From IMG/VR virus record IMGVR_UViG_2526164650_000011: a stretch of DNA of 10,342 nucleotides. One strand, written 5' to 3'. Numbering within the stretch: position 1 is the stretch's first letter; every line of letters starts with the position of its first letter. This document shows, one piece after another, positions 1,234 to 9,142 of the stretch. The position numbers and the translations under genes were made by a program. This DNA is from a virus (taxonomy: Duplodnaviria > Heunggongvirae > Uroviricota > Caudoviricetes). The notes below the pieces were generated by a model. The model was not told the DNA's origin, made no database searches, and saw only the letters and a program-made list of their open reading frames with translations.

Positions 1234-1480
1234 CTGACATGCTAAAGCAAAAAATAGATGAATAAGTTGAGTTGTGCATATGTAGCCTGACCGTCACAAA
1301 GTATATGGTGTCTGTACCAGTAAGATGATGGCCGGACTCTTTAAAAAAGAGCTGACCTGCACAATACAGGATGGACTTAGCAATGGCTGCTCCTGGCACA
1401 AAGCGGACAGTGATCACCGTTCTTACGACTACTTTCTGACTTCCTTCGTGACTTGCCCTAAGCATGTTGTAGTGCGATAT

Positions 1481-1504
1481 TTGTAATGACATTTGTAATT
1501 ACAA
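1481..1504 (+). promoter_or_regulatory. relBE operator (relO): perfect 12-bp palindrome TTGTAATTACAA at 1493-1504 plus an upstream half-site-like TTGTAATGACAT
   Basis: Palindrome read directly. It lies just upstream of the GAGG Shine-Dalgarno (1505-1508) and the relB ATG (1517), consistent with the known RelB/RelE-bound operator overlapping the relBE promoter. Confidence 0.65.
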
Positions 1505-1516
1505 GAGGTGTAAGAC

Positions 1517-1756
1517 ATGGGTAGCATTAACCTGCGTATTGACGATGAACTTAAAGCGCGTTCTTACGCCGCGCTTGAAAAAATGGGTGTAACTCCTTCT
1601 GAAGCGCTTCGTCTCATGCTCGAGTATATCGCTGACAATGAACGCTTGCCGTTCAAACAGACACTCCTGAGTGATGAAGATGCTGAACTTGTGGAGATAG
1701 TGAAAGAACGGCTTCGTAATCCTAAGCCAGTACGTGTGACGCTGGATGAACTCTGA
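1517..1756 (+). CDS. relB: RelB antitoxin (79 aa), intact
   Basis: MGSINLRIDDELKARSYA...RNPKPVRVTLDEL matches E. coli RelB as recalled. Its TGA stop overlaps the relE ATG by 1 nt. Confidence 0.9.
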   Translation: MGSINLRIDDELKARSYAALEKMGVTPSEALRLMLEYIADNERLPFKQTLLSDEDAELVEIVKERLRNPKPVRVTLDEL

Positions 1757-1900
1757 TGGCGTATTTTCTGGATTTTGACGAGCGGGCACTAAAGGAATGG
1801 CGAAAGCTGGGCTCGACGGTACGTGAACTGAAGTGGCACACTGAATTTGGCCACCTGAACAGAGGTGATATGCTCACCTCAGAACAACACAGGTGCTCCA

Positions 1901-2203
1901 ATGAAAAAAAGAAATTTTAGCGCAGAGTTTAAACGCGAATCCGCTCAACTGGTTGTTGACCAGAAATACACGGTGGCAGATGCCGCCAAAGCTATGGATG
2001 TTGGCCTTTCCACAATGACAAGATGGGTCAAACAACTGCGTGATGAGCGTCAGGGCAAAACACCAAAAGCCTCCCCCATTACCCCGGAACAAATTGAAAT
2101 CCGTGAGCTCAGGAAAAAGCTACAACGCATTGAAATGGAGAATGAAATATTAAAAAAGGCTACCGCGCTCTTGATGTCAGACTCCCTGAACAGTTCTCGA
2201 TAA
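1901..2203 (+). CDS. IS911 OrfA (100 aa, helix-turn-helix / leucine-zipper transposase component)
   Basis: [49 protein letters not shown]... matches IS911 OrfA as recalled. Confidence 0.9.
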
Positions 2204-3069
2204 TCGGGAAACTCAGAGCGCATTATCCTGTGGTCACACTCTGCCATGTGTTCGGGGTTCATCGCAGCAGCTACAGATACTGGAAAAACCGTCCTGAAAA
2301 ACCAGACGGCAGACGGGCTGTATTACGCAGTCAGGTACTTGAGCTACATGGCATCAGCCACGGTTCGGCCGGAGCAAGAAGCATCGCCACAATGGCAACC
2401 CGGAGAGGCTACCAGATGGGACGCTGGCTTGCTGGCAGGCTCATGAAAGAGCTGGGGCTGGTCAGCTGTCAGCAGCCGACTCACCGGTATAAACGTGGTG
2501 GTCATGAACATGTTGCTATCCCTAACTACCTTGAAAGGCAGTTCGCCGTGACCGAGCCAAATCAGGTGTGGTGCGGTGATGTGACCTATATCTGGACGGG
2601 TAAGCGCTGGGCGTACCTCGCCGTTGTTCTCGACCTGTTCGCAAGAAAACCAGTGGGCTGGGCCATGTCGTTCTCGCCGGACAGCAGGCTCACCATGAAA
2701 GCGCTGGAAATGGCATGGGAAACCCGTGGTAAGCCCGGCGGGGTGATGTTCCACAGCGATCAGGGCAGTCATTATACGAGCAGGCAGTTCCGGCAGTTAT
2801 TGTGGCGATACCAGATCAGACAGAGTATGAGCCGGCGCGGAAACTGCTGGGATAACAGCCCAATGGAACGCTTCTTCAGGAGTCTGAAGAACGAATGGAT
2901 GCCGGTGGTGGGTTACGTAAGCTTCAGCGAGGCAGCTCACGCCATAACGGACTATATCGTTGGATATTACAGCGCACTAAGACCGCACGAATATAACGGT
3001 GGGTTACCCCCAAACGAATCGGAAAATCGATACTGGAAAAACTCTAACTCGGTGGCCAGTTTTTGTTGA
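2149..3069 (+). CDS. IS911 OrfB frame (DDE catalytic domain), expressed as an OrfAB fusion by -1 frameshift at A-AAA-AAG (2152-2158)
   Basis: The -1 frame opens after TGA at 2143-2145, and the ATT at 2149 matches the known AUU start of IS911 orfB. DDE core WCGDVTYI...FHSDQGSHY...[14 protein letters not shown] is present. Confidence 0.85.
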
Positions 3070-3366
3070 CCACTTCAAACAGTTGAAAAAGAAGCTGGTT
3101 GAAGTACTTGAGTCACCCCGGATTGAAGCAAACAAGCTCCGTGGTATGCCTGATTGTTACAAGATTAAGCTCCGGTCTTCAGGCTATCGCCTTGTATACC
3201 AGGTTATAGACGAGAAAGTTGTCGTTTTCGTGATTTCTGTTGGGAAAAGAGAACGCTCGGAAGTATATAGCGAGGCGGTCAAACGCATTCTCTGAACCAA
3301 AGCATGACATCTCTGTTTCGCACCGAAGGTGACACTTCTGCTTTGCGTTGACAGGAGAAGCAGGCT

Positions 3367-3522
3367 ATGAAGCAGCAAAAGGCGATGTTAATCGCCCTGA
3401 TCGTCATCTGTTTAACCGTCATAGTGACGGCACTGGTAACGAGGAAAGACCTCTGCGAGGTACGAATCCGAACCGGCCAGACGGAGGTCGCTGTCTTCAC
3501 AGCTTACGAACCTGAGGAGTAA
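3367..3522 (+). CDS. hokD: HokD (RelF) Hok-family type I toxin, 51 aa, intact ORF
   Basis: MKQQKAMLIALIVICLTVIVTALVTRKDLCEVRIRTGQTEVAVFTAYEPEE read by hand (shorter than the ORF-track cutoff). AGGAG at 3353-3357 lies 9 nt upstream of the ATG. Confidence 0.85.
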   Translation: MKQQKAMLIALIVICLTVIVTALVTRKDLCEVRIRTGQTEVAVFTAYEPEE

Positions 3523-3591
3523 GAGACCCGGCGAGTGAGAAATCCCTCGCCACCTCTGATGTGGCAGGCATCCTCAACGCACCCGCACTTA

Positions 3592-3612
3592 ACCCGCTTC
3601 GGCGGGTTTTTG
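3592..3612 (+). terminator. Intrinsic terminator downstream of hokD
   Basis: Stem CCCGC (3593-3597), UUCG tetraloop, GCGGG (3602-3606), followed by TTTTTGTTTTT. Confidence 0.7.
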
Positions 3613-7443: not shown

Positions 7444-7834
7444 ATACATATCTGGATTATCACCTGTTACGGTAAAAAGTGATTGCTTACTGTTTTTGTT
7501 AATGGCATTGCAGCAGCCGGATAATGTCAGTGCCGGCTGACGGTGTGCTGGTGGCGGGTGTGGTGGTTGTTGCTTTCCCGTTGCTGAAAAAGAAAACGCC
7601 AGACTGTTAGCCGGGTATCAGTTAGCGGGAGAAATTTTTAAATACTTCACAATTCAGGCGGTTGACTGTTGTCTGGTTTGCGGGGAGTTTGTTAAAAGAA
7701 ACTGGCATGGTGAATCCCCCTGTGCGGAGGGGCAATCAGCGAGTAGGTATATGGGATAATCGCGGATTCAGGTGCTGGTACTGAATTCACCGGGAGGCAC
7801 CCGGCACCATGGAATGGCACATAGCGCCACTCTC

Positions 7835-7866
7835 CAGCCCCTCTCCGGAGGGGCTGTTTATATTGA
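7835..7866 (+). terminator. Strong intrinsic terminator: perfect 9-bp stem CAGCCCCTC-tccg-GAGGGGCTG followed by TTTATATTGATTTT
   Basis: Read directly. It terminates plus-strand transcription through the GC-rich segment at 7500-7835. Confidence 0.7.
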
Positions 7867-7890
7867 TTTTGTCAGATGTGAGTAAACTCC

Positions 7891-8226
7891 TTATGGACTT
7901 TGTTGTTTTAGTCCATAAGGGCATATTTGCAGAGTGCAACGGTTATTAAAGCATTCATTCAATACGTTATCTGTATTTGTAGGGCATTCCTGGCTGTTTT
8001 TGATTAAATTCCAGAATGTTTTATTGAATGGTACTACGTTGTAAATGGTTACAGGTAGCACTTTGTTATTGAGCATGATGCCTGTGTGAGTCAGTGTAAA
8101 TATACTTTCAGGAGGTAAGAAAGCATCCGATTGATACCAGATTATTAATTTTATTTTACTCCATATGACTGAAAAAGATATTCCGCATGATGGCTGGATA
8201 ACTGTATCAATCACAATCCACTTCAT
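7891..8226 (-). CDS. Hypothetical protein (111 aa, five Cys), antisense to the phage late operon
   Basis: ATG at 8226 is preceded on the minus strand by AAGGA with 6-nt spacing. The 3' end of the ORF forms an 11-bp hairpin (7889-7920). A TATACT -10-like hexamer lies upstream (plus-strand 8267-8272). No family recognised. Confidence 0.45.
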
Positions 8227-8485
8227 TTAGTTTCCTTGTTTATGCCTTGCTGGTGATGTTCTGAAAAGTATAAATGATATTTTTGAATTAAACCATAGAA
8301 CAGAATTATTTTTCTGATGTTGTTTATTGTTTATTTAAATGCAGGGTGGTTTATATCTCGTCTTGTAGTTTATCCATGCATATCTGCTTGATAATCAGGT
8401 TTTTATTTAAGGTATGGTTTTGTGTTTTTTCTGTATTACATGTCAGGTATTTTAAAGAATTATTTTTCAGATGTTGGAAAGAACC

Positions 8486-8674
8486 ATGGCATTTAAACAC
8501 TATGATGTTGTCAGGGCGGCGCCGCCGTCAGATCTTGCGGAAAAGCTGACACATAAACTGAAAGAGGGCTGGCAGCCGTTTGGTAGTCCGGTGGCCATAA
8601 CCCCTTATACCCTGATGCAGGCGATTGCAGCAGAAGGTGATGTGGTGGTCAGTGGTGCAACTGAGCCGGAGTGA
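8486..8674 (+). CDS. Small conserved lambdoid-phage protein (62 aa from ATG 8486), recalled as DUF1737-like and usually found just upstream of S holin
   Basis: MAFKHYDVVRAAPPSDLAEKLTHKLKEGWQPFGSPVAITPYTLMQAIAAEGDVVVSGATEPE, with GGAAAG upstream of ATG 8486. The family name is from memory and unverified. Confidence 0.5.
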   Translation: MAFKHYDVVRAAPPSDLAEKLTHKLKEGWQPFGSPVAITPYTLMQAIAAEGDVVVSGATEPE

Positions 8675-8916
8675 TACTACGTCATCGTACTGGCCCGGCA
8701 TTCCAGGCCATAAAAGACAGTCTGGCAGTGGGACTAAATGCACTGACGCTGACGGATATTACCAAAAATGCAACGTATGGCGTTGAGATAGAAAGTCTGG
8801 TGCTGGAGATAAATGCACCGGCATCATCATAAAAAGTGAGCCAGTCAAATGGAAGGTATCGTTAAACTCACCGGTAGTGTCAGTGGGTCGTCTGAGACGC
8901 TTGCATGAGTTATCAG

Positions 8917-8948
8917 AGCCATCAGTAGTTAACTGGTGGCTTTTTTAT
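8917..8948 (+). terminator. Intrinsic terminator immediately upstream of the holin gene
   Basis: 9-bp stem AGCCATCAG / CTGGTGGCT (one G-U pair), 7-nt loop, then TTTTTTATT. Confidence 0.55.
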
Positions 8949-8981
8949 TGTTGTCAGCTTCCGGATAACGGGAGACGGGGT

Positions 8982-9142
8982 ATGGACCAGATGGAAAAAA
9001 TCACAACAGGTGTGTCATACACCACGTCAGCGGTGGGAACGGGCTACTGGTTCCTGCAGTTGCTGGACAGGGTTTCCCCGTCTCAGTGGGCGGCAATAGG
9101 CGTGCTGGGGAGTCTGCTGTTTGGGCTGCTGACATATCTGAC
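8982..9142 (+). pseudogene. essQ: S21-type class II holin (pinholin) with dual start (Met1/Met4), truncated after codon 54 by IS600 insertion
   Basis: [54 protein letters not shown] resembles phage 21 S as recalled. The frame then continues into IS600 terminal sequence (EVYWQ, stop at 9161); the native charged C-terminal tail is missing. Confidence 0.8.

Follow-up and report, generated by a model that had tools for sequence, protein, structure and literature searches.

A Qin-like prophage remnant bracketed by inverted IS600 copies is present in both orientations in public Shigella genomes

A 7.9 kb Qin-like prophage remnant is bracketed by two oppositely oriented copies of IS600, and public genomes hold this segment both ways round, so that the predicted flip has really occurred. 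An earlier note on this DNA had claimed that homologous recombination between the two copies would invert the segment, and the comparison with related genomes that it proposed as a check has found both isomers, here called A and B. The window, by which we mean the whole 10,342-nt stretch of DNA analysed, is 100% identical to contig AFHD01000019.1 (locus L013) and also matches Shigella flexneri chromosomes; judged by its sequence, it is a piece of S. flexneri chromosome carrying a decayed Qin-like cryptic lambdoid prophage. The best explanation as a whole, to which we give a probability of about 0.85, is that IS600 inserted twice independently, that homologous recombination between the inverted copies flips the segment, and that the window represents isomer B.

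The two IS600 copies and the DNA between them

Features of the window (coordinates, strand, description and basis):

1..309, + strand: 3' part of IS1; C-terminal 97 aa of InsB at 1-294, right inverted repeat ending at 309 (Pfam DDE_Tnp_IS1, E=1.5e-48)
310..1233, + strand: IS600 copy 1, truncated; IS600 positions 341-1264, orfB 372-1190 (rve and HTH_21 domains; RefSeq IS600)
1234..9142, no strand: invertible segment, 7,909 bp; Qin-like lambdoid prophage remnant plus IS911, in both orientations between fixed flanks in Shigella
1234..1492, - strand: ydfV', last 15 codons lost to IS600 copy 1 (alignment to K-12 ydfV; empty site)
1517..1756, + strand: relB antitoxin gene, intact (Pfam RelB, E=1e-32)
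1756..3295, + strand: relE toxin gene, interrupted by IS911; 5' part 1756-1828, 3' part 3081-3295 (ORF translations)
1829..3077, + strand: IS911, 1,249 bp; orfA 1901-2203, orfB 2230-3069 (Pfam domains)
3367..3522, + strand: hokD, type I toxin (Pfam HOK_GEF, E=1.2e-23)
3740..3991, + strand: rem (PF27490 Rem on the identical gene in related loci; K-12 synteny)
4338..5387, + strand: ydfU-like DUF968 protein (Pfam DUF968, E=2.5e-76)
5400..5756, + strand: rusA Holliday-junction resolvase (Pfam RusA)
5771..6592, + strand: late antiterminator Q, intact (Pfam Antiterm, E=6.9e-55)
6598..6692, + strand: late promoter candidate at 6598-6625 and terminator candidate at 6673-6692, immediately following Q (consensus matches only)
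6737..6979, + strand: two tRNA genes (ARAGORN); CAT anticodon 6737-6812, tRNA-Arg TCT 6903-6979
7891..8226, - strand: PmrD/IraM-like gene (PF11183 on the identical gene; homologous stretch in L001 annotated iraM)
8471..8674, + strand: DUF1737 protein (PF08410 on the identical gene)
8982..9142, + strand: truncated class II holin gene, retaining 161 of its 216 nt, frame continuing in IS600 to 9161 (PF04971)
9143..10342, - strand: IS600 copy 2; orfB 9186-10004, orfA 10040-10342, IS600 positions 65-1264, ending at the window edge

A repeat search of the window returned one long inverted repeat, with arms at 305-1240 and 9136-10071 (936 nt, 99% complementary), the few bases past the true IS600 ends being a chance extension. 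The IS600 right end, ...CCAGTACACCTCA, was read at 1233 in copy 1 (+) and at 9143 in copy 2 (-), and repeat search, sequence reading and RefSeq annotation all agree with the earlier description of two near-identical inverted copies whose right ends face inward. The copies have 924 nt in common with three mismatches (window 466, 596 and 1182); in some strains the shared IS600 homology is 949 nt. The truncation of copy 1 by IS1, also claimed from the sequence, is exact to the base: IS1 extends to its right end, ...AAGTTGGAGTCATTACC, at 309, from 310 onwards the sequence is homologous to IS600 (CAGGAGTCGC...), and the same junction is present in 10 other loci. Copy 1 has orfB only and, having no left end, orfA or frameshift site, is unable to move on its own. 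Copy 2 reaches the edge of the window at the ATG of orfA and is cut off there; the source contig has the complete element of 1264 bp, TGAGGTAGCC...CCAGTACACCTCA, which abuts ydfJ' and has the imperfect inverted repeats of the 5'-TG...CA-3' type. Across these 1264 nt it is 99.4-99.5% identical to copies from E. coli that RefSeq labels 'IS3-like element IS600 family transposase'. Its orfA and orfB overlap, with an A7G run (-1 frameshift site) between the frames and with HTH_21 and rve domains, and an orfA-orfB fused product of 385 aa is called in related loci.

Both inner junctions could be fixed by comparison with empty sites. On the copy 1 side, the intact ydfV of K-12 and of two E. coli prophages reads ...GAAAGCAACA directly followed by CTGACATGC, and on the copy 2 side, the intact holin gene of six E. 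coli prophages (encoding 71 aa) reads ...CATATCTGAC directly followed by TAACCTG. The two targets thus differ, one being the ydfV 3' end and the other holin codon 54. This bears out the part of the earlier note that placed the copies at different sites, but its argument from unlike flanking bases (ctg versus gtc) is uninformative, as these are two right flanks and a target duplication is a matter of the left versus the right flank of one copy. No 3-bp target duplication was found around the full copy, whose left flank is GGG and whose right flank is GTC in isomer B or CTG in isomer A, and the full copy therefore sits at a rearrangement junction, which gives the note's conclusion a sounder basis. 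The missing duplication concerns the history of both copies, as rearrangement junctions, and not their identity as IS600.

One segment bracketed by two copies of one IS might also be taken for a composite transposon mobilising 7.9 kb of prophage DNA. This is scarcely credible, since the outer (left) end of copy 1 has been replaced by IS1 at 309/310 together with orfA and the frameshift site; both ends that face the segment are inward right ends, so that the segment is without usable outer ends; all Shigella-type loci with the IS600 pair have it at a single chromosomal site, from ydfJ' to IS1-ydeQ; and no target duplication surrounds the unit.

The bracketed DNA, given in the earlier note as about 7.9 kb of prophage, is indeed a Qin-like remnant, but it also includes a 1,249-bp IS911 in relE that the note had not listed. 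This element is 99% identical to RefSeq copies annotated 'IS3-like element IS911 family transposase' and has a 3-bp target duplication, AAC, at 1826-1828 and 3078-3080; related loci have gene calls for an intact RelE of 95 aa, and the 1252-nt indel is specific to the window and L013. On either side of IS911 (window 1232-1828 and 3078-5387), the segment has 91-99.7% identity to K-12 Qin, and its identity to phage mEp460 is 96% over 76%. The ydfV' open frame continues to 1187 within IS600, again giving 101 aa, and bears the clade marker 1480T; the exact ydfV' protein was found on only 7 contigs, and the exact Q protein appears in 2223 blocks of the searched collection. The promoter and terminator candidates after Q are positioned as in the lambdoid pR'/tR' layout, and the CAT-anticodon tRNA is annotated as tRNA-Ile in a related RefSeq prophage (L001).

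Two isomers between constant outer flanks

In isomer A, ydfV' is joined to the full IS600 that lies beside ydfJ', and the holin gene to the copy truncated by IS1. This arrangement was found in 14 inspected assemblies, including 2457T; Sf301 and Sf8401 were added to it, beyond these 14, by published gene order (locus-tag order). The order in loci L002-L010 is ydfI, ydfJ', full IS600, ydfV', relB ... Q ... holin', truncated IS600, IS1, ydeQ, ydeP, safA, ydeO, and window positions 1-1233 (IS1 plus truncated IS600) match there without interruption, on the other strand and on the holin side (in L004 at 14616-13384, with 2 mismatches). In isomer B the partners are swapped and the four junction sequences are unaltered. 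It comprises six assemblies (the AFHD01 source strain of the window, G1663, CP042980, CP026765, CP049606 and LR213452); the order in L012, L013 and L014 is ydfI, ydfJ', full IS600, holin' ... Q ... relB, ydfV', truncated IS600, IS1, ydeQ, ydeP, and L019, L022 and L023 have the diagnostic junction of holin', full IS600 and ydfJ', loci L018-L027 being judged from the holin-side junction only. The region from ydfJ' to ydeQ spans approximately 11-12 kb.

When the flanks are tabulated, the full copy has CAGCAAGATGGG on its left in every case and the truncated copy is always against the IS1 end, and the right flanks CTGACATGCTAA and GTCAGATATGTC exchange between the full and truncated copies. Swapped partners with unchanged junctions are the signature of homologous recombination within IS600, and the comparison of isomers revealed no new IS copy and no added target duplication at the junctions. 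Three features expected of inversion through inverted IS copies were found: long near-identical repeats, both orientations between the same outer flanks, and junctions that are only re-paired.

An assembly artefact could in principle mimic this pattern, as repeats of 0.9-1.3 kb exceed short reads and a segment with one orientation in nature might be placed arbitrarily. The source of the window is a draft contig, and IS600 SNP patterns are noisy across assemblies, suggesting imperfect resolution of the IS copies. Such an artefact is nevertheless unlikely. Orientation is non-random, in that three isomer-B assemblies found by one protein variant carry three independent markers, in and outside the segment; isomer B is present in an assembly from PacBio RS II and Illumina reads (CP049606) and in several other complete chromosomes; and it is unlike the classic references 2457T, Sf301 and Sf8401, and so is not the product of reference-guided finishing. 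Collapse of a single element into two, the doubt that the earlier note had raised against itself, is countered by the three differing sites, the different flanks, and the presence of both copies in over 20 independent assemblies, among them at least one documented as PacBio-based.

In the history that we favour, IS600 would have inserted independently twice, once near the ydfV 3' end and once in holin codon 54. The copy in the holin gene would join this gene to truncated ydfJ, with ~8.4 kb of the K-12 Qin layout replaced; from the copy in ydfV, IS1 would have removed the left 340 nt, and this IS1 links the copy to ydeQ-ydeP-safA-ydeO. We infer that host homologous recombination between the inverted copies, presumably RecA-dependent, flips the intervening 6.7-7.9 kb. 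Such a flip would alter neither the outer flanks nor any of the four junction sequences, and would re-pair the outer halves (ydfJ' with the left part of IS600; IS1 with truncated IS600) with the inner ends (ydfV' or holin'); the window would then be isomer B, and 2457T and most inspected genomes the flipped isomer A.

Inheritance and recurrence of the flip

Three markers, namely 1480T, a deletion of 11 bp near 6853 and one SNP in the right flank, unite the three isomer-B genomes found via the YdfV' variant and are missing from all inspected isomer-A genomes and outgroups; isomer state is inherited in this SNP-defined clade. SNPs at 6234, 7921 and 8300 sort the genomes into two groups, with both isomers in each and all four combinations present. 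A single flip does not account for these SNPs within the segment, and at least two flips are needed, a count that depends on one isomer-A genome (L026) in the second SNP group; individual assemblies may mis-orient a repeat-bounded segment, which matters most for L026. The K-12 one-strand order ydfJ, essQ, ydfT, ydfU, rem, hokD, relE, relB is the arrangement of isomer B, which, being collinear with K-12 Qin, is probably the ancestral state. By the locus tags of Sf301 and Sf8401, the whole b1503-b1565 block is inverted and the segment is re-inverted inside the block; re-inversion inside a larger inverted block is on record for Shigella in the case of the oriC region flanked by IS4 (PMC1550401, PMC8072062).

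Of the IS600 SNPs, the one at position 1213 (window 1182) is near the inner end, and in several genomes it stays on the copy next to IS1 whichever the isomer, from which it follows that a single crossover would lie in the last 51 nt of the 924 (~5% prior); gene conversion or assembly noise is otherwise needed. Linkage to the outer flank of a SNP 51 nt from the inner end, as seen in L004, L007 and L010 versus L012-L014, is what would be expected for exchange at or very near the IS end, and the full copy has intact orfA and orfB, so that the IS600 transposase might itself invert at the two inward-facing right ends, or its nicks might stimulate exchange. We consider this very unlikely. Its basis is one SNP, probably one event, in IS copies that are prone to conversion and polishing errors. 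IS3-family transposition proceeds by copy-out, paste-in via a circle, and is not known to invert DNA precisely unless it also leaves a new copy or a target duplication, neither of which appears among the tabulated flanks.

Comparison with known systems and possible function

IS-flanked inversions between S. flexneri Sf8401 and Sf301 have been described (Nie et al. 2006, PMC1550401), and IS-mediated chromosomal inversions in Shigella have been surveyed (Seferbekova et al. 2021, PMC8072062). The present locus is like these in that inverted copies of one IS provide the homology and the intervening DNA is found both ways in different strains, and differs in being small (6.7-7.9 kb) and inside a prophage remnant. 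As Sf8401 and Sf301 are both isomer A, the IS600-mediated 'inversion 4' (PMC1550401) is at a different locus, and our literature search found no paper that singles out this IS600-flanked inversion.

With Qin of K-12 the locus shares the chromosomal site (ydfJ, to which the ydfJ' flank is 98.7% identical), the order ydfV-relB-relE-hokD-rem-ydfU-Q-holin, and an identity of 99.7% over ydfV-relB-relE 5' and 91% over relE 3' to ydfU. It differs in the presence of rusA, in a Q-to-holin module of other lambdoid type (tRNAs, DUF3927, PmrD/IraM-like, DUF1737) where K-12 Qin has cspB/cspF, and in the absence of the whole left part (ydfK to rrrQ) and of all beyond ydfV. The IS600-flanked stx region of Shigella dysenteriae type 1 is similar in being the reduced late region of a defective lambdoid prophage, bracketed by IS600 and IS1; its IS600 copies are direct and lead to amplification or deletion, in contrast to the inverted copies and inversion seen here. 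The present locus has no stx genes: no frame between Q and holin matched Shiga toxin, the largest open frames in that interval have 117 and 111 aa, and recorded family matches are limited to DUF3927, PmrD and DUF1737.

As in Pin/P of e14, Gin/G of Mu and Hin/H, the segment exists in two orientations, but the Shigella repeats are 924-nt IS copies rather than short recombination sites, and no coding sequence is switched. A site-specific invertible switch was considered and rejected, as 1234-9142 contains no recombinase ORF or domain; that no invertase gene lies in or beside the segment is explained by the position of K-12 pinQ within the part of Qin deleted here.

The inversion could instead be a selected on/off switch, in which orientation would send Q-dependent late transcription out of the holin end and into ydeQ-ydeP-safA-ydeO (isomer A) or ydfJ'-ydfI (isomer B). 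Q is intact and is followed by promoter-like and terminator-like sites, in both isomers the flanking genes beyond the holin end are in sense orientation, and the flip appears recurrent. However, read-through must traverse IS600 antisense (plus IS1 in isomer A), there is no dedicated recombinase, any 0.9-kb inverted repeat is expected to flip recurrently, and ydfJ' is a truncated gene; we regard selection of this kind as extremely unlikely. Also highly unlikely is a reversible recombination-driven switch that aims a predicted Q-antiterminated late unit at the acid-resistance genes ydeP-safA-ydeO (A) or at ydfJ'-ydfI (B). The late unit in this reading is made up of the promoter-like site at 6598-6625, the two tRNA genes and holin'. 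Were the switch true, repeated flips across Shigella lineages would reflect selection on read-through, and not neutral repeat recombination. We favour homologous recombination between the IS600 copies, with a selected function probably absent; the rearrangement is an ordinary case of a well-known kind, by a mechanism familiar in Shigella.

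The IS600 pair and the DNA between its copies

A repeat search finds a single long inverted repeat in the window (arms 305-1240 and 9136-10071, 936 nt, 99% complementary), which corresponds to two IS600 copies whose right ends (...CCAGTACACCTCA) lie at 1233 on the plus strand in copy 1 and at 9143 on the minus strand in copy 2. Copy 1 is truncated by IS1: on reading of the sequence the IS1 right end (...AAGTTGGAGTCATTACC) finishes at 309, and the first IS600 base follows directly at 310. The copies have 924 nt in common with 3 differences, at window positions 466, 596 and 1182. 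Copy 2 reaches the window end at the orfA start codon and in the source contig is the full 1264-bp element; elements 99.5% identical carry the RefSeq annotation IS600. Both inner junctions were confirmed to the single base by comparison with empty sites (ydfV is intact in K-12 and in two E. coli prophages, the 71-aa holin gene in six E. coli prophages), and the coordinates that the earlier note had given for the bracketing copies are therefore correct. A rusA look-up recovered mostly intact E. coli prophages, which served as empty-site references and were left out of the isomer tally below.

The segment between the copies (1234-9142) had been described as about 7.9 kb of prophage DNA. This holds for 6.66 kb, a prophage remnant, the remainder being an IS911 that had gone unmentioned. 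Its features are as follows (a prime denotes a truncated gene).

1234-1492, minus strand: ydfV', last 15 codons replaced by IS600
1517-1756: relB
1756-3295: relE, split by IS911
1829-3077: IS911 in relE, 1249 bp, with a clean 3-bp target duplication AAC (whole span 1826-3080)
3367-3522: hokD
3740-3991: rem
4338-5387: ydfU-like DUF968 gene
5400-5756: rusA
5771-6592: late antiterminator Q
6737-6979: tRNA genes with CAT and TCT anticodons
7891-8226, minus strand: PmrD/IraM-like gene
8471-8674: DUF1737 gene
8982-9142: Class II holin (holin'), cut after 161 of 216 nt

The layout matches that of Qin, the cryptic lambdoid prophage of E. coli K-12, with 99.7% identity over ydfV-relB-relE 5' and 91% from relE 3' to ydfU. 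The segment is lambdoid throughout, phage mEp460 being 96% identical over 76% and Stx phages 88-90% identical. The fused ydfV' frame, which reads into the IS600 end (1187-1492, minus strand), is again exactly 101 aa, and gene callers therefore report a normal-looking YdfV. The IS911 insertion in relE leaves relB and hokD intact and is specific to the source contig among the loci inspected; a look-up of the window-specific RelE'-IS911 fusion ORF returned no match on record. In 2457T-type genomes (L003, L010) an IS911 99.8-99.9% identical lies between ydfV' and relB, at window coordinate ~1465 and ~360 bp from the relE position, and the two insertions are independent hits in one small region.

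Two orientations of the segment in public genomes

Many Shigella flexneri chromosomes, 2457T (AE014073) among them, encode a Q protein identical to that of the window. The YdfV' variant of the window is rare and its look-up gave three long loci, one of which (L013, AFHD01000019.1) is identical to the window (100% across 10,342 nt). In public Shigella genomes the segment occurs in two orientations, here called isomers A and B.

Isomer A (L002-L010): ydfJ' / full IS600 / ydfV' relB ... Q ... holin' / truncated IS600 / IS1 / ydeQ
Isomer B (L012-L014, hence the window): ydfJ' / full IS600 / holin' ... Q ... relB ydfV' / truncated IS600 / IS1 / ydeQ

The most telling single result concerns window 1-1233, which comprises IS1 and the truncated IS600: in isomer-A loci this stretch is matched without a break, but on the other strand and at the holin side of the segment (in L004 at 14616-13384, with 2 mismatches). 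When the flanks of every IS600 copy are tabulated, the left flank of the full element is invariably ydfJ' CAGCAAGATGGG and the truncated element invariably adjoins IS1, and the right-end flanks CTGACATGCTAA (ydfV') and GTCAGATATGTC (holin') swap partners between isomers. No new junction, extra IS copy or new duplication appears in this table in either isomer, and junctions re-paired without novelty are what reciprocal exchange within inverted IS600 homology predicts. The earlier note had proposed that recombination between the copies would invert the segment, and had suggested comparison with related genomes; with both isomers found and all junctions merely re-paired, its observation is confirmed and its interpretation supported.

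A look-up of the truncated holin recovered the isomer-B junction in CP026765.1 (L019), CP049606.1 (L022) and LR213452.1 (L023), as well as CP007037.1 again and more isomer-A junctions. A scan of species-representative genomes for the holin'/IS600 junction gave one match, CP178302.1 (labelled E. coli), of isomer A, and the sequence of locus tags listed in the supplementary data of Nie et al. 2006 (PMC1550401) places S. flexneri Sf301 and Sf8401 in isomer A. Isomer A is thus represented by 14 inspected assemblies plus Sf301 and Sf8401, isomer B by 6 assemblies, and a deletion variant by one, S. flexneri CP024981.1 (11581-12349), in which the segment stops at window coordinate ~7343. In this variant the segment end abuts a position within the truncated IS600, and the DUF968 gene is partly absent (window 4436-4937).

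The full IS600 is bordered by GGG on its left and by GTC or CTG on its right; these flanks form no duplication and place the copy at a deletion or rearrangement junction. Target duplications cannot demonstrate a swap as a trace of past exchange, the truncated copy having no left flank. At the IS1/IS600 junction (309/310) a long form, IS1 followed by AAAAAAAGCAACAGCGTATTTTGCA CAGGAG..., retains 949 nt of IS600 (L003, L010, L012, L026), whereas the short form of the other loci, the window included, lacks those 25 nt and retains 924 nt. Each form occurs in both isomers and on either side of the 1480T clade boundary described below, and so the identical 25-bp deletion beside the IS1 end seems to have arisen twice, unless one assembly is wrong or strains have recombined. 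There is no microhomology at the ends of this deletion; GGAGTC is present in the IS1 tip and also just inside the short junction.

Number, mechanism and direction of the flips

It is unlikely that the two orientations are an assembly artefact. Three markers are common to the three isomer-B genomes from the YdfV' look-up: 1480T, an 11-bp deletion (GATAACAGGGT) between the tRNA genes near 6853, and a right-flank SNP at a distance of 2.7 kb. These markers are derived, since K-12 and an E. coli ST131 prophage have the alternative states, and the orientation is therefore passed on within a clade, a pattern that mis-assembly at random would not produce. CP049606, an isomer-B genome submitted under the name S. 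boydii 600080, was assembled from PacBio RS II and Illumina data. This strain belongs to clade 1a and has no virulence plasmid, and its holin'/IS600/ydfJ' junction is the same as in S. flexneri; either the IS600 arrangement predates the boydii/flexneri split, or the strain is of flexneri lineage.

By their SNPs at 6234, 7921 and 8300 the genomes fall into two groups, and both isomers occur in each: the first comprises L019, L022 and L023 (isomer B) and L026 (isomer A); the second comprises many isomer-A genomes together with the 1480T clade, which is isomer B. The four combinations imply at least two independent flips, barring inter-strain recombination or mis-assembly, with the count depending on a single genome, L026, and solely on junctions at the holin side; the flank SNPs comprise too few sites for rooting a tree.

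The best explanation of the isomers is that homologous recombination by the host flips the segment, with the inverted IS600 repeats (924-949 nt) as the shared homology. We rejected a composite transposon formed by the IS600 pair: copy 1 is without its outer end, the ends adjoining the segment are both inward-facing right ends, and the unit occupies a single site in all Shigella-type loci with the pair, with no duplication around it. A site-specific invertase was likewise rejected, as the segment contains no gene for a recombinase and pinQ falls within the deleted part of Qin. For transposase-assisted exchange at the IS600 right ends there is one hint. The copies differ (G/A) at window 1182, which is IS600 position 1213, 51 nt from the right, inner end, and in both isomers (L004, L007 and L010 versus L012-L014) G stays with the IS1-side copy and A with the ydfJ'-side copy. 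A crossover in the middle of the repeat should have moved the base together with the segment end, which is not seen, and a randomly placed one would produce the observed pattern in only ~5% of cases. However, this is one site in noisy IS sequences, the sole well-anchored one, as SNPs within IS600 are too noisy across assemblies for crossover mapping, and we record it as an unexpected observation rather than as evidence.

In every Shigella-type locus carrying the pair, the unit lies between ydfI-ydfJ' and IS1-ydeQ-ydeP-safA-ydeO. In K-12, ydeQ-ydeP-safA-ydeO is ~40 kb away in opposite orientation, whereas in L002-L014 it is directly beyond IS1. The locus tags of Sf301 show the block b1503-b1565 inverted relative to K-12, with the segment turned back within it (Nie et al., Additional file 2), and further breaks at b1498/b1499 and b1516/b1517, which places the IS600 pair at the edge of a larger IS1-bounded rearrangement. 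K-12 carries ydfJ, essQ, Q, ydfU, rem, hokD, relE and relB on one strand, as in isomer B; the ydfJ' junction corresponds to a point 267 nt into the K-12 ydfJ gene and the break in the holin to essQ, and isomer B thus represents the K-12 layout with IS600 replacing ~8.4 kb. Given the Sf301 block inversion, isomer B requires one large inversion and one deletion, and isomer A one flip more. As the SNP group with ancestral alleles is also mostly isomer B, the form in the window is probably the ancestral state, by parsimony alone.

Consequences of the polymorphism

Directly after Q (6598-6979) stand a promoter-like site (6598-6625), a terminator-like hairpin (6673-6692) and the two tRNA genes, of which the CAT-anticodon gene is annotated tRNA-Ile in a related RefSeq prophage and the second is Arg-TCT. 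In Stx phages this layout precedes stx; the segment has the layout with no stx genes after Q. In isomer A the holin end is followed by ydeQ-ydeP-safA-ydeO, in isomer B by ydfJ'-ydfI, in each case in sense orientation, and the direction of the segment thus alters what is downstream of the Q-dependent late unit. A functional switch is conceivable but unsupported, and nothing indicates a function of the flip.

IS-mediated inversions, including re-inversions inside larger ones, are well documented in Shigella (PMC1550401; PMC8072062). The IS600-mediated 'inversion 4' between Sf8401 and Sf301 (PMC1550401) is another locus, since both strains are isomer A in locus-tag order, and a literature search found no published description of the present polymorphism. 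The segment is a further, well-documented example of a known rearrangement type and nothing new in kind for IS-driven genome decay and rearrangement in Shigella; it is useful chiefly as a practical warning and as a small worked example. As these 7-8 kb of S. flexneri DNA occur either way round, the region near ydfJ/ydeP can mislead read mapping, synteny-based typing and reference-guided assembly, and short-read assemblies are unable to resolve the orientation. Junction bookkeeping on public genomes was enough to test the inversion prediction without reads, and it suggests that one inverted IS pair has produced a heritable structural polymorphism, more than once, in a clonal pathogen.
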